Assembly (NCBI GenBank): GCA_005776585.1
Contig: SXOX01000045.1
Span: 53,425 to 117,424 of the forward strand
Source of the DNA: Pseudomonadota bacterium
GTDB taxonomy: Bacteria; Myxococcota_A; UBA9042; GCA-2863065
Length of the DNA stretch: 64,000 nt
Direction: 5' to 3'
Shown here: positions 54,815 through 63,256 of the stretch, piece by piece
How the letters are laid out: every line of letters begins with the position of its first letter
Numbering within the stretch: position 1 is the stretch's first letter
Made by a program: the position numbers and the translations under genes
Notes under the pieces: model-generated
Database searches by the model: none
What the model saw: only the letters and a program-made list of their open reading frames with translations
What the model was told of the DNA's origin: nothing

Positions 54815-55243
54815 ATGACCATCAATGACGCCCTCCGCGCCTCCTTGGGTGGCGCCCTCATCGGCCTGTCCATCGCCATCGTCCTGCTCGTGAAGGGCCG
54901 CGTCGCCGGCGCGACCAGCGTCTTCGCCGGCGCGATGCGGCCCGGCACACCGGAGTTCCCGTGGCATCTGCGCTTCGTGCTGGGCCTCCTCGCGGGTGGG
55001 CTGGTCATGGCGCGCCTGAGCCCCGACGTCTTCGACGTCGCCAGCGCGCGACCGCTGCCCATTGTGCTGGTCGCCGGCCTCCTCGTCGGCATCGGCGCGC
55101 GCGTCGCCAACGGGTGCACGAGCGGCCACGGCCTCTGCGGCATGAGCCGGCTGTCGCTGCGCTCGATCGTGGCGACCGGGACGTTCATGGCCGCCGGCGT
55201 CGTCACCGCCATCGCCGCAGGTCGCCTCTGGGGGGCCTCGTGA
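54815..55243 (+). CDS. YeeE/YedE-family sulfur-transport membrane protein (half-size)
   Basis: GARVANGCTSGHGLCGMSRLSLRS signature. 142 aa. Confidence 0.8.
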   Translation: MTINDALRASLGGALIGLSIAIVLLVKGRVAGATSVFAGAMRPGTPEFPWHLRFVLGLLAGGLVMARLSPDVFDVASARPLPIVLVAGLLVGIGARVANGCTSGHGLCGMSRLSLRSIVATGTFMAAGVVTAIAAGRLWGAS

Positions 55244-55671
55244 TTCGCGGCCTCGTTGCCTTTGGTGCCGGCGTGCTGTTTGCGGTTGGCCTCGGCGTCT
55301 CCGGCATGTCGCGCCCGTCCAAGGTGCTCGCCTTCCTCGATGTCACCGGCTCGTGGGATCCGAGCCTCCTGTTCGTCATGGGGGTCGGCCTCGCCGTCGT
55401 CGCCATCGCGTGGCGGCTCGCAGCGCGCATGGCCTCGCCATTGCTCGGCGGCGCGTTCCCGCCCGCACCCTCCAAGGTCATCGACGGCACTCTCATCGGC
55501 GGCTCGCTCGTCTTCGGGCTGGGCTGGGGCCTCGTAGGCTTCTGCCCCGCGCCGGGCCTGCTCGCCATCGCCAGCGGCGCTGGCTGGGCGCTGGCCTTCG
55601 CGGGGGCCATGCTCGCGGGGATCGCGCTCGTGAGCGCGTTTGAGCACTGGCGCTCGACGAGCGATGGCTAA
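55240..55671 (+). CDS. YeeE/YedE-family membrane protein (second half-size subunit)
   Basis: GTG at 55240 overlaps the upstream stop. GLGVSGMSRPSKVLAFLD. Four hydrophobic helices. Confidence 0.75.
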   Translation: MIRGLVAFGAGVLFAVGLGVSGMSRPSKVLAFLDVTGSWDPSLLFVMGVGLAVVAIAWRLAARMASPLLGGAFPPAPSKVIDGTLIGGSLVFGLGWGLVGFCPAPGLLAIASGAGWALAFAGAMLAGIALVSAFEHWRSTSDG

Positions 55672-59250: not shown

Positions 59251-60451
59251 CGCCGGTTTCAGCCGCCATGGGTCGTAGGCAATGCTCGCTTGCCATGCTC
59301 GACCCGTAGGCGCCGGCGGGCAGCAGGGCGACCAGGTCGCCCTCGGCGATCCGCGGCAGGGCGACGTCTCGTGCGAAGACGTCGTTGGCCTCGTTGATGT
59401 TTCCAGCGACGTGAAGGGGCAAGGGCCAGGCGTCGGGGGCGTCGAGCGGCGCGCGTAGCGGCACGACCGCGAGCGGTATGCCATAGTGGGCGGCGTACAC
59501 GTTGACGTTGTGACCTGCGTCGAGGCCAATCCACGTGGCGTCGCGCCGATGCTCGACCGTCGTGACCTCACAGAGGAGCACCCCGGCCGTCGCGGTGACG
59601 AAGGTCCCGGGCTCGCACGCGACGCCGAGGTCCGTTCCCGCGAGCGAGCGCCGCAGGATGTCGCCCCACGTCTCAACCGACAGCTGCTCGTCCTCCGCCC
59701 GAAAGCGCGGGGCGAGGCCACCGCCCACGTTCAGCCACTGTACGGTCGGCACCTGCTGCGCGAGCCCGACGAGCGTCCTCACGACGCGCTCGAAGTCCGC
59801 CGCAGCCGACGCGGGAAGCCCCCATCCGAGGTGGACGTGGAGCGCGTCGATGCCAACACCGAGCGCGCTCGCGCGTGCCACGAAGCGCGGCAGCGCCTCC
59901 TGATCGAGCCCGAACTTGCTCTTGCCGTACGCCAGCTTGGCCGAGCCACCCCACCCGAGCGCCACGTCCGGGTTGATGCGCACCCCGATCGTGACGCCAC
60001 GTCGCGCGCGTTGCGCGAAGCGCTCCAGGGCCGAAAACGCGTCGAGCGTGACGTGCACGTTGGTGGCGACCAGCGTGTCGAGGTCGCGATTGGACAGCAT
60101 CCCTGCGTTGAACGAGAGCTGCTCCGCTCGAAACCCGGCCGCGAGAGCCCGCTGCACCTCGCCGGGCGAGCACGCGTCAATCCCGATGTCACCCTCGCTC
60201 CGGATGACCTCCAGCACCGGCCCGAAGCGGTTGGCCTTCATCGCGTAGAAGATGCGATGCCTCGACGGCAAGACCTCACGCAGCCGCTGGAGCTGCCGTC
60301 GGATGGTATCGGTGCCGTACACATAGAGCGGCGTGCCACGCGCCCGCGCTAGCTCGACGAGCCCCACGCCGTCGAGCGTGAGCCCTTCGGGCCCCACCGA
60401 CAGCCCCTCAGTCAGCCACCAGGGCGCGCTCATTCGTCGTAGAGAAGCCAC
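59246..60451 (-). CDS. lysA: PLP-dependent group IV decarboxylase (diaminopimelate decarboxylase family)
   Basis: FYAMKANRFGPVLEVIRSEG.IGIDACSPGEV. 401 aa. Substrate not certain, so the symbol is tentative. Confidence 0.75.
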   Translation of the reverse strand: MASLRRMSAPWWLTEGLSVGPEGLTLDGVGLVELARARGTPLYVYGTDTIRRQLQRLREVLPSRHRIFYAMKANRFGPVLEVIRSEGDIGIDACSPGEVQRALAAGFRAEQLSFNAGMLSNRDLDTLVATNVHVTLDAFSALERFAQRARRGVTIGVRINPDVALGWGGSAKLAYGKSKFGLDQEALPRFVARASALGVGIDALHVHLGWGLPASAAADFERVVRTLVGLAQQVPTVQWLNVGGGLAPRFRAEDEQLSVETWGDILRRSLAGTDLGVACEPGTFVTATAGVLLCEVTTVEHRRDATWIGLDAGHNVNVYAAHYGIPLAVVPLRAPLDAPDAWPLPLHVAGNINEANDVFARDVALPRIAEGDLVALLPAGAYGSSMASEHCLRPMAAETGA

Positions 60452-61596
60452 GGCCGACGGTCGACACGAAACGCCTCGGCCTCGGCGTCGAGCCCGGACA
60501 CGACCGCATCCAACGCGTCGCCCTCCTCGATGCGGTGGCGCAGCGCCGAGTCTCCGAGCAGCAGGTCGATGGCGATCCGATCCTGGACGAACTCATAGGC
60601 GTCCGACCGCCACTGGAATCGATCCCCGCCAAGCTCCTTGAGCGCCAACAGCACCGCGATCCCGAGCCGCACGGGCTCCAACGCGCGGGCATCATCGAGG
60701 ACGACCCGCACACCACCGCAGGCCTCACCTGCCCACTTGTCCCAGCTCGGCTGAAAGACGTGCGGCACAAAGCGCACGCCTTCGAGCTCGTCCTCCATGA
60801 GCCGCGCGGCGAGCGCGAACGGGTCGTAGAACGGCGCGCCGAACACCAGGAACGGCGTCGTCGTGCCGCGGCCCTCGCTGACGTTCGTGCCCTCGAGCAG
60901 GCACATGCCCGGGTAGACGACCGCGGTGTCCAGCGTCGGCACGTTCGGCGACGGCGGGAGCCAGGCCAGCCCGGTGTCCTCCCAGCGGAGCGCGCGGCGG
61001 TAGCTCTGCATCCGCACCGCGGTGCCGGCGCCACCGGAATACGCCCGAACCAGCTCCGCGACCGTCAGCCCGTGTCGCTGGAGCATCCCGGGGTGACCCA
61101 CGAACGAGGCCCACGCGCCACCGAGCCGATTTCCCTCGACGACATCTCCGCCGAGCGGGTTGGGCCGATCGCAGACATAGGCGGGGAGGCCGGCGGCGAC
61201 CGCGCCTTGCACCGCCCACGCGGCCGTCTGCGCGTAGGTGTAGTAGCGCGCGCCGACGTCCTGAACGTCGACAATGACTGCGTCCAGGCCCACGAAGACC
61301 TCGGGCGGAGGACGGAGCGAGGCCTCGCTCTCTCCGTAGAGGGAGACGACCTCGAAGCCGCTGACCGGGTCCACGCCGCCATCGACGGCCACCATGTACT
61401 GGGCCGTACCCCAGGGCCCGTGCTCGGGTGCCAGGAGACGAATCACCTCCGCCCCCGCGCCGCGCAAGGCGAACGGCGCCCAGCTCAGCTCGCGCGTCAT
61501 CGACGCCGCGTGGCACAGCACCCCGACGCGCTTGCCGCGAATGACGTGCGCCAGCTCGTCGCTGAGGCGATCGAGGCCGGTTCGAAACAGCGTCAC
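60430..61596 (-). CDS. DUF1343 / NamZ-like exo-beta-N-acetylmuramidase family protein
   Basis: VIVDVQDVGARYYTYAQTAAWAV and overall DUF1343 layout. 388 aa. Confidence 0.8.
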   Translation of the reverse strand: MTLFRTGLDRLSDELAHVIRGKRVGVLCHAASMTRELSWAPFALRGAGAEVIRLLAPEHGPWGTAQYMVAVDGGVDPVSGFEVVSLYGESEASLRPPPEVFVGLDAVIVDVQDVGARYYTYAQTAAWAVQGAVAAGLPAYVCDRPNPLGGDVVEGNRLGGAWASFVGHPGMLQRHGLTVAELVRAYSGGAGTAVRMQSYRRALRWEDTGLAWLPPSPNVPTLDTAVVYPGMCLLEGTNVSEGRGTTTPFLVFGAPFYDPFALAARLMEDELEGVRFVPHVFQPSWDKWAGEACGGVRVVLDDARALEPVRLGIAVLLALKELGGDRFQWRSDAYEFVQDRIAIDLLLGDSALRHRIEEGDALDAVVSGLDAEAEAFRVDRRPWLLYDE

Positions 61597-61606
61597 TCGC
61601 GGTGGC

Positions 61607-63256
61607 TCAGTGCGATGGCACGGCGCGCGGCTCGACCTTGACGGCCGGAGCGGGCGCGACGGGCGGCGTCGCGGACTTGCTGGGGTCTGGGTACTTCTTG
61701 CGATACGCGTCCACGATGGCCTTCACCTTGGGCTCGTCCGCCAGGCGCGTGTCGACATCGAAGAGCGCGTACTTGAGCGTCGAGGTCTCGGCCCCGCTGG
61801 ACTTGGCCTGCGCCTCCCGCGCGTCCTCCAGGTCGAGCTTGACCGCCGCGAGGTCCGTCTTGAGACGCACGAGCGACTCCTCGAGCAGCTTGACGTTGCC
61901 CGACTGATCGCGCACGACGGCGCCCGCGACCGGCGGAGGCGCAGGCTTGGGCTTCTTGGCCGCTTCGATGGCCTCTTCGCGGTACTTGACGTCCCGCTCG
62001 AGGTTGGCCTTCTTGCCCTCCAGGCCCTGCACGACGCCCGGATCCGAGAACGCGAAGGACTTGCCCTTGACCGTGAGCTCCAGCACCGCGAGGTTCTTGC
62101 CGCGCATGAAGGCCTCCGCGATCCACGTGTCCTTCTCTCGCCGCGCGAGCTGCTGCATCGGATAGCCCTGACCGCCCACGAGGATGCGCACCTCGGGGCA
62201 CTTGGCCGCGATCTCCTTCATCTCGGTGTCGTTCAGGTGGCCGAGCACGACGAACAGATCGACGCCGTCGGACTTGCGGCGCGCGATCTCAGCCTGCACG
62301 GCGTCGACGGGCAGGCTCATGGTGAAGCCCTCGGCCTTCATCCGCTCCTGGTTGTTGGCAAACAGCGTCGTCGTGGCGCCGATGACGGCGATCTTGAAGC
62401 CGGCGACGGTCTTGAGGACCGACGGTTGGAAGACGGGCTTGCCGTCGACGAGGATGTTGGCCGAGAGGTAGGGGAACTTGGAGCGTTTGGCGACCTTGCG
62501 CAGCAGCGACAAGGGCAGGGCGAGATCCCGGTCACCCACCGTGTAGGCGTCCAGCCCGATATGGGAGAGCGACTCGCTGAAGACGTCGGCGAGCGCCTCG
62601 TACTGATCGAGCTTGGTCTTGTCCGCCGCGAAGCTCTCCATGAACATGTCACCGGCCTCGAGGTGCAGCACCGGGATCTTGGCGGCCTCCAGGGCCTTCA
62701 GGTACGTCGCACGCCGGGCTAGACCGCCCAGCCGATTGTGTACTCACCCACAGGGTTCGACTTCGCCTTGCAGGTTGGAGCTGCCGACGATCATGAACGT
62801 GGGCCGCGTCGCCGGGAGGAGCTTCTCGGGCGCGACGAACGTGGGCATGGGCTCCGGCTGCGCGCGCGCGGCAGGCGCTCCGGGCGGTGCGGTGGGCACG
62901 GCGACGGGCGCGTTGGGTGCCACGGGTACCGGCGGACCGGCCGGCGGCAACATCGACGGAGGCAGCGCGATGGGCGAGGACGGGGCCGCGAGCTGACCAA
63001 CGACCGGGACCGAGGGCACCTGCGCGCCGTCGATGGGACGCCGAGGCTCCGTGGACGGCGCGGTCTTCGGGGGCTCCGGCGCAGCAGCTGGCGGTGCGGC
63101 CTCGGCAGGCGCGACGGCCGCGGGCTCAGCCGGTGCGGGCTCGGCCGGTGCGGGCGAGGTCTGTTTGCAGCCCGACGCGATGGCGACGGCAAGTCCCAAC
63201 AGCACCGCCTGCGTGAGACGAATGAGAGACGGGGAGTGCGAAGAGCGGCTCGACAT
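61607..63256 (-). CDS. UshA-type metallophosphoesterase/5'-nucleotidase-fold lipoprotein; one reading frame interrupted by a single in-frame TGA (62744-62746): candidate selenoprotein or pseudogene
   Basis: Track ORFs 62744..63256 and 61607..62671 are in the same frame, and the 24 codons between them are sense codons. Lipobox VAIASGC, Pro/Ala linker, then FMIVGSSNLQGEVEPCG-TGA-VHNRLGGLARRATYLKALEAAKIPVLHLEAGDMF...FPYLSANILVDG...IAVIG. Confidence 0.6.
62702..62746 (-). promoter_or_regulatory. SECIS-like hairpin immediately 3' of the in-frame UGA
   Basis: UGA GUAC ACAAUCG GCUGGGC [GGUCUA] GCCCGGC GUGCGAC GUAC. 7-bp apical stem (one U-G), 6-nt loop starting 18 nt after UGA, 4-bp basal stem. Confidence 0.4.

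Follow-up and report, generated by a model that had tools for sequence, protein, structure and literature searches.

A cytochrome-less member of the UshA-like C-x-U selenoprotein family, with a predicted fdhF-like SECIS, in a Myxococcota metagenome contig

Proteins related to UshA that carry a C-x-U motif, in which U denotes selenocysteine (Sec), are not new to the literature: 'COG0737, UshA-like, CxU' was one of 51 previously described selenoprotein families considered by Zhang & Gladyshev in 2008, who counted 76 Sec and 92 Cys sequences of the family in Global Ocean Sampling (GOS) data (PMC2398784). The UshA-like family is listed in a 2022 review (PMC9312934), and a 2026 review ties it to the NCBIfam model NF041198 (PMC13188914). 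The published minimal form of the bacterial Sec insertion sequence (SECIS) is a 17-nucleotide (nt) stem-loop located 11 nt from the UGA, in which U17, G23 and U24 are critical (Liu et al. 1998, in PMC8659212). We analysed a 64,000-nt stretch of the metagenome contig SXOX01000045.1 (positions 53,425 to 117,424 of the forward strand, assembly GCA_005776585.1, placed in Myxococcota_A by GTDB), which we call the window. A gene on its minus strand is interrupted by one in-frame TGA. This gene is an unannotated member of the known UshA-like selenoprotein family, belonging to a clade that lacks the cytochrome module of some relatives, and does not found a new family.

The two minus-strand open reading frames (ORFs) at this locus, 62744..63256 (170 aa) and 61607..62671, lie in one common frame, and the sequence 3′ of the TGA (62743-61607) continues in frame with the first of them. 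The TGA at 62744-62746 is the sole interruption of a gene of 549 codons (61607..63256), the read-through product of which is ...FMIVGSSNLQGEVEPCG-TGA-VHNRLGGLARRATYLKALEAAKIPVLHLEAGDMF.... GC content at third codon positions (GC3) in the shared frame is 0.87 before the TGA and 0.88 after it, in a window of 68.6% GC. The codon right after the TGA is GTA, and neither ATG, GTG nor TTG occurs in the 24 codons 3′ of the TGA, so that the earliest possible start in the window lies past the conserved GGLARR segment. Because of these two features the domain could not be made without read-through. Since the gene itself terminates at a TGA (61607-61609), genome-wide reassignment of UGA does not apply. 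An A or T ends five of the 11 codons that follow the internal TGA (GTA, AAT, GGT, CTA and CGT). When the window was scanned, no other in-frame TGA flanked by coding signal emerged as a credible candidate.

In describing the two ORFs as one gene split only by a TGA, the initial annotation was right, as judged by frame, GC3 and collinear orthologues. Inspection of the ORFs and codons confirmed the 24 start-less codons that it had reported, and a recount gave the same 5 of 11 A/T-ending codons. Its expectation that a standard annotation would split the gene also proved accurate: public gene calls divide the window gene and its orthologues, which appear as one ORF of 170 aa and another of 346 to 400 aa instead of a single gene (for example P0001, 346 aa). 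Finally, it had placed the TGA inside a domain of the UshA/5′-nucleotidase type, and the alignments agree, with the first strand and ligand loop cut from the remainder of the domain. Taken together, the comparisons make it highly likely that the two ORFs are one gene and that its TGA encodes Sec.

The closest database homologues (40–46% identity) are all annotated from, or shortly after, the residue that follows the TGA. Their contigs share the segment NLQGE[VI]EPCG-TGA-VKARLGGLARR, and all of them also encode a lipoprotein signal and a Pro/Ala linker; between the window and its orthologues the flanking peptide is kept despite synonymous DNA changes. Another 41 loci came into the comparison from GTDB genomes and JGI metagenomes. 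A TGA was found at the common column (QGE[VI]EPCG-TGA) in 40 loci, corresponding to 32 unique sequences that reach down to about 25% protein identity. The metagenome-assembled genomes (MAGs) containing TGA loci are labelled Myxococcales/Polyangia, Deltaproteobacteria, Thermodesulfobacteriota, Fidelibacterota/Neomarinimicrobiota and Eisenbacteria. The nearest orthologue from a genome belongs to a MAG labelled 'uncultured Myxococcales' and one orthologous record carries the name Myxococcota, which, with the GC content of the window, makes Myxococcota the probable affiliation of the organism. Nine loci, all from MAGs, have TGC or TGT at the Sec column (L017, L019, L024-L026, L029, L030, L032 and L042), at least five of the nine being labelled Bdellovibrionota, and the Cys-form homologues are uninterrupted polypeptides. 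An exhaustive HMMER search returned 4,067 homologues, and many of the full-length ones read PCGC or DCGC at the site. The alignment at the TGA column that had been put forward as a check on the initial annotation thus returned TGA in 40 loci and Cys in nine, as well as in many database proteins. The proposal of a Sec codon within a C-G-U motif is supported by this conservation and by the Cys homologues, and also by the covariation and the suppressed synonymous variation in the hairpin described below. As a separate observation, the nine Cys-form loci show no hairpin-compatible codon choice, which fits an exchange of Sec and Cys that tracks the Sec-decoding trait.

Directly 3′ of the TGA, the minimum-free-energy (MFE) fold of the transcript contains the hairpin GCUGGGC-GGUCUA-GCCCGGC, the loop of which begins 18 nt after the UGA; here and below, nucleotides are counted from the U of UGA. 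Across 28 distinct sequences the stem positions are paired in 93.4% of cells, compared with 18–54% in controls in which the 3′ arm was slid. Two pairs are compensatory, 15-34 alternating GC/UA (4 sequences) and 18-31 alternating UA/GC (9 sequences), and the covariation score was reached by 0 of 500 shuffles. Between the window and its closest orthologues, a synonymous double change (Leu CTG/CTT and Arg CGG/AGG) exchanges G-C and U-A with the pair kept. G22, G23, T24, C25 and T26 are invariant in the 28 sequences. The two strands of the window contain 1,396 TGA trinucleotides; GGTC stands at nt 22-25 after 12 of them, and a 7/7-bp stem in register occurs only here. The hairpin after the TGA is not a chance feature. 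The check for covariation that had been set for this hairpin was answered by two compensatory pairs.

Since the conserved LGGLAR peptide is read from the same nucleotides as the hairpin, we compared codon choice between Sec and Cys forms. G23 and U24 belong to the second Gly codon. Outside Eisenbacteria, 27 of 27 Sec forms spell this codon GGT, as do only 2 of 9 Cys forms, the others using GGG, GGC or GGA. Such suppression of synonymous variation speaks for an RNA constraint on this codon in the Sec forms.

As a reference we used the SECIS of fdhF from E. coli K-12, which has its TGA at codon 140. Both elements have a spacer of 11 nt and a hairpin that begins at nt 15, and U17, G22, G23, U24, C25 and U26 are identical. 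The window element differs in its GC-rich stem of 7 bp and 6-nt loop, and in U17, which is predicted to form a wobble pair rather than a bulge. U17 is conserved in at least 90% of the sequences and forms a predicted U·G wobble with G32 in 25 of the 28. The downstream hairpin is thus very probably an fdhF-like SECIS and a putative target of SelB. This direct comparison confirms the fdhF-type spacing and GGUC loop that the initial annotation had pointed to; of the structure of about 42 nt that it had drawn, conservation extends only to the upper hairpin of 20 nt with its loop 18 nt after the UGA, and the larger structure is not supported. A conserved lower SECIS helix at nt 9-11/37-39 was considered and rejected, being paired in 49%, and in the window itself the pairs below the hairpin vary between folds. 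Around the TGA, Rfam returned no SECIS-type family, either at the gathering threshold or at E<=10, where only noise appeared.

Two groups of loci depart from the common hairpin. L015 and L021, from Deltaproteobacteria and Thermodesulfobacteriota MAGs, encode GGLPR variants in which an Ala-to-Pro change (GCC to CCC) shifts the stem register by one; the stem then has 6 bp and the GGUCU loop 5 nt, the hairpin being preserved through the coding change. L028, L031, L033 and L039, from Eisenbacteria or uncultured MAGs, read U-HG[AKR]KGGLAR, with one residue (codon) less after Sec. They are without GGUCU at nt 22-26 and have a GC-rich hairpin, GGCCC-NNN-GGGCC, further downstream; this points to a variant geometry of their SECIS.

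The top NCBIfam match of the read-through protein is NF041198 'UshA_like_PCGU', UshA-like (seleno)protein (E 4.7e-61, positions 17-379 of 519). Positions 380-519 of this model represent the multihaem cytochrome c module of relatives, with CxxCH repeats, and there the window protein has no match. By comparison, CxxCH repeats are present in P0074, which matches positions 14-518, and in P0106, which reaches 358 bits; orthologue L003 scores 202.8 bits, and cytochrome-less Cys homologues score 165–211 bits. The window protein and the other cytochrome-less homologues tested fall below the NF041198 cut-off because they have no cytochrome module, and the missing cytochrome together with the sub-cut-off score is the probable reason for the splitting of the gene by gene callers. 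A PDB sequence search matched 5′-nucleotidase 2z1a (E 9.6e-10), UshA chains (about 2e-7) and, more broadly, UshA/CD73 (about 1e-7 to 1e-6), and the NCBIfam UshA model NF007109 gave E 1.6e-12. The features by which the literature defines the UshA-like CxU family (COG0737), namely homology, a conserved C-x-U TGA with Cys homologues and a downstream hairpin, are all present. Hence two claims of the initial annotation did not survive. The gene is not a new selenoprotein family, in view of the NF041198 match and the listings in PMC2398784, PMC9312934 and PMC13188914, and the statement that the fold is absent among described bacterial selenoproteins was wrong, COG0737 UshA-like CxU having been catalogued by 2008. 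The description of the product as a lipoprotein with a phosphoesterase-type fold was correct, given the lipobox Cys30 and the PDB and NCBIfam homology.

Other explanations of the TGA were weighed against Sec insertion. Splitting by gene callers, and the fact that no Sec machinery was seen in the sequence at hand, are both compatible with a pseudogene or a sequencing or assembly error, in which the TGA would be a recent nonsense mutation or base-call error in a Cys gene. The window lies on a 203.5-kb metagenome contig (k141_7529 of ENA ERZ27257034), and the same gene with the same TGA is present in an independent assembly of identical sequence (Logan SRR8894379); the TGA recurs in the 32 unique sequences at identities as low as about 25%. 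Moreover, the 378 codons downstream of the TGA contain no further stop or frameshift, nor do the orthologues, so that the scattered lesions by which pseudogenisation was to be recognised in relatives were not found and the TGA reading stands; and a SECIS with covariation follows the TGA. We consider an error or pseudogene extremely improbable. It would also be possible to read the locus as two genes, a small lipoprotein ending at the TGA and a second protein produced by termination-reinitiation at an adjacent GTG. GTG does directly follow the TGA in the closest orthologues, where database products start (P0002-P0005), but the next codon is GTA in the window, with the first start 24 codons on and past GGLARR, and AAG, CAA, ATA, CCG or CAC in other clades. 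Two separate products are further opposed by the position of the TGA, which cuts a single domain between first strand plus ligand loop and the remainder, and by the continuity of the Cys-form homologues, and we give this arrangement very little credence.

Sec machinery has not been demonstrated for the organism, which leaves room for UGA to be read through as Cys or Trp by near-cognate insertion, or under a reassigned code. This too is very unlikely: the gene ends at TGA, so UGA is still a stop in the same mRNA, the element has fdhF-specific features of SelB recognition rather than a generic read-through context, and a single column that alternates between Sec and Cys is the classical mark of selenoproteins. 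Somewhat less remote, although still improbable, is that the gene is a relic of a lineage that recently lost Sec decoding, intact but no longer expressed at full length. Reviews call selenoprotein loss common in bacteria, and no Sec machinery was seen in the available sequence. In the window, however, lineage-specific compensatory synonymous changes preserve hairpin pairing, and the 378 downstream codons keep a high GC3 and all family-invariant residues, which indicates continuing selection on both the RNA element and the protein.

Several results weigh against Sec insertion or qualify the assignment built on it. Searches with E. coli SelA, SelB and SelD (tblastn) found no selA, selB or selD, and ARAGORN found no tRNA-Sec; the former covered the 64-kb window of this metagenome contig, the 8.6 kb past its 64000 end (L001) and the fetched loci, the latter the window, the 8.6-kb contig extension and 48 loci. 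In stability the local fold does not exceed shuffled sequence (z = 0.30, ordinary for the GC content), the hairpin overlaps the LGGLAR codons, so that its conservation is partly protein-driven, and the window U17 sits in a predicted U·G wobble, being bulged in fdhF. The NF041198 score of 206.9 bits is below the curated cut-off of 275, and a Pfam scan of the read-through protein gave no match. A literature search found no experimental or functional study of any UshA-like selenoprotein member, and the function, partner protein and cellular location given here, like a redox role for C-G-U, are inferred. As to the machinery, we infer that the organism decodes Sec because selection appears to be still acting on the TGA, on the SECIS and on the 378 codons that follow.

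The explanation that best accounts for these observations jointly, to which we assign a probability of roughly 0.88, is that the gene encodes a lipoprotein of about 549 residues, belonging to the known UshA-like C-x-U family, in which UGA171 specifies Sec. During translation, UGA171 would be read as Sec when a SelB-type factor carrying Sec-tRNA(Sec) binds the 7-bp hairpin 11 nt past the UGA, the hairpin presenting U17 and the G22-G23-U24-C25-U26 loop to this factor as in the fdhF SECIS. The product would then be exported and lipid-anchored at Cys30, the lipobox Cys of an N-terminus that reads …AVAIASGC. A tether of 118 residues, 54% Pro plus Ala, would keep the domain off the membrane; the linkers of orthologues are alike in composition and unlike in sequence. 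Cys169 and Sec171 might form a redox centre of the selenenylsulfide type or a centre that binds a chalcogen or metal, although our confidence in this chemistry is low, and residues left from the ancestral metal site (D203, D242 and H340) may assist. Having no cytochrome of its own, the window protein may act with the membrane protein encoded just upstream. The features of the locus are collected in Table 1.

Table 1. Coordinates of the selenoprotein gene, its SECIS and other features of the window
Feature	Position	Strand	Basis or remark
Single coding sequence, 549 residues, Sec at codon 171	61607..63256	-	Continuous frame and GC3; orthologues collinear over full length
Lipoprotein signal peptide, lipobox …AIASG-C30	63167..63256	-	By eye against lipobox consensus; orthologues LALSC, LSFGC, LVSGC
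Low-complexity Pro/Ala tether, residues 31-148	62813..63166	-	Composition: 36 P, 28 A
Motif N161-L-Q163-G-E165-V-E167-P-C169-G-U171	62744..62776	-	Invariant in six orthologues; aligned to UshA D41/H43
11-nt spacer from UGA to hairpin	62733-62743	-	Between UGA and upper SECIS hairpin
SECIS upper hairpin, nt 15-34, stem 15-21/28-34	62713..62732	-	MFE fold, covariation, match to fdhF positions
SECIS loop G22 G23 U24 C25 U26 A27	62720-62725	-	Same hairpin
NF041198-matching region, comprising degenerate metallophosphoesterase-like domain, charged segment and YRKKYPDP motif	61688..62818	-	Profile positions 17-379/519; homology to 2z1a
Charged, putatively helical segment, residues 411-482	about 61811-62026	-	Label from sequence appearance only
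Conserved YRKKYPDP motif, residues 518-525, followed by Pro-rich tail	61682-61705	-	Orthologue comparison
3′ part of multi-pass membrane protein gene, about 376-379 aa	63303..64000, past window end (L001 8206-9345)	-	Conserved upstream neighbour
NamZ-type gene (NamZ_N/NamZ_C, DUF1343)	60430..61596	-	Starts 10 nt after selenoprotein stop
Sulf_transp (PF04143, YeeE/YedE-type, 142 aa) and adjoining DUF6691 (143 aa)	54815-55671	+	Small gene pair
tmRNA gene, tag peptide ANDNVEHNLALAA	45281-45634	-	Rfam RF00023, 158 bits

The gene directly upstream encodes a membrane protein that was found at every window-clade locus where it could be detected (L001-L005, L008-L012, L043, L044 and L049), with 28–55% identity and the conserved motifs YFPREDTLH and NPF. 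For L006 and L007 no upstream sequence was available, and the protein was not detected in the 1.5 kb of upstream flank at L045/L047. Pfam and NCBIfam gave no meaningful family match for it. Its conserved position makes it a possible partner of the selenoprotein. The copies on the JGI contigs Ga0115650_1003301 and Ga0105015_1005160 (L003/L004) are 100% identical to that of L011, which belongs to the MAG 'uncultured Myxococcales bacterium binchicken_co141_27' (CAZJHX010000036.1), and the three loci probably represent the same population. On the downstream side, the NamZ-type gene is followed by an Orn/DAP/Arg decarboxylase gene, and the selenoprotein, NamZ-type and decarboxylase genes are probably co-transcribed here; this neighbourhood is not conserved at orthologous loci.

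Two further features of the window lie apart from this gene cluster. The YeeE/YedE family, to which the Sulf_transp gene relates, has Sec-containing members in other genomes (review table, PMC13188914), and no in-frame TGA was seen in the Sulf_transp/DUF6691 pair of the window. The permuted-tmRNA model RF04321 overlaps the tmRNA gene with a borderline score (47.6 against 47 bits) and is probably redundant.

To place the C-G-U motif in the domain, 59 family members were aligned to UshA, the numbering of which was confirmed on the K-12 sequence. We take D41, H43, D84, N116, H217, H252 and Q254 to be the metal ligands of UshA (1USH), and H117 and D120 to be its catalytic residues. The window protein shares homology with the metallophosphoesterase domain of UshA and other 5′-nucleotidases (1USH, 2Z1A and CD73; E 1e-9 to 2e-6) and retains D84 as D203, within a GD motif, and H217 as H340. 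Unlike these enzymes, it has N161 for D41, Q163 for H43, D242 for N116, Q363 for H252 and Y365 for Q254, and the catalytic pair H117/D120 is replaced by R243 and A246. Loss of this His-Asp pair is general in the family: of the 59 members, 29 have Arg and 32 have Ala. The invariant loop N-x-Q-G-E-x-E-P-C-G-U occupies the site of the D-x-H-G-H metal-ligand loop of 5′-nucleotidases. A further difference is the absence of the C-terminal substrate-binding domain of 5′-nucleotidases, which was not found in the Pfam scan, and the PDB alignments end within the N-terminal domain.

Judged from these alignments, the domain is a remodelled, degenerate calcineurin-like phosphoesterase fold. A nucleotidase role, or a canonical phosphoesterase mechanism, appears unlikely because the catalytic His-Asp pair is lost and a Cys-Gly-Sec loop stands at the metal-ligand site. 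More probably, Cys169 and Sec171 form a putative redox or chalcogen/metal-binding centre outside the cytoplasm. In several relatives the domain is fused to a C-terminal multihaem cytochrome c, and these fusions point to a role in extracytoplasmic electron transfer. A sulfur or selenium substrate would be a reasonable first guess, by analogy with the weakly similar SoxB. Tentatively, the cytochrome-less, lipid-anchored clade and its upstream membrane protein might constitute a functionally distinct extracytoplasmic enzyme, its dimetal phosphoesterase site converted into a Cys-Gly-Sec centre for redox chemistry or for the handling of sulfur, selenium or metal, but we hold this view with little confidence.

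The practical consequence of these findings is that the NF041198 cut-off excludes the cytochrome-less clade, leaving such selenoproteins unannotated in Myxococcota and other MAGs. The UshA-like family is a rare case of a selenoprotein outside thioredoxin-like or other known redox folds, and the main interest of the locus lies in what chemistry a degenerate phosphoesterase fold with Sec performs, and not in the existence of the selenoprotein. Three leads follow for work on this chemistry, namely the lost catalytic residues of the phosphoesterase, the match of the SECIS to that of fdhF, which suggests that expression in E. coli might be possible, and the conserved upstream gene as a candidate partner.

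Compared with the described NF041198/COG0737 CxU family, the window protein has an identical P-C-G-U motif, the same Sec column with Cys homologues, a SECIS directly 3′ of the UGA and the same homology to the N-terminal domain of 5′-nucleotidases. It differs in having no C-terminal multihaem cytochrome c, which puts it below the cut-off, and its clade is distinguished by the lipoprotein signal, the long Pro/Ala tether and the conserved upstream membrane-protein gene. SoxB thiosulfohydrolase (TIGR04486; PDB 2WDC) is the second NCBIfam match (E 4e-15); this enzyme shares the fold, works outside the cytoplasm and has a sulfur substrate rather than a nucleotide. The match reaches 55 bits against a cut-off of 550, SoxB is without the Cys-Gly-Sec loop, and the window has no sox genes near the selenoprotein gene. 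UshA-like selenoprotein family 2 (NCBIfam NF049981) is a second Sec-containing offshoot of the fold. It is matched weakly, at 51 bits and under its cut-off of 140, and has the motif CxxU in place of the CxU that the window protein shares with the first family.

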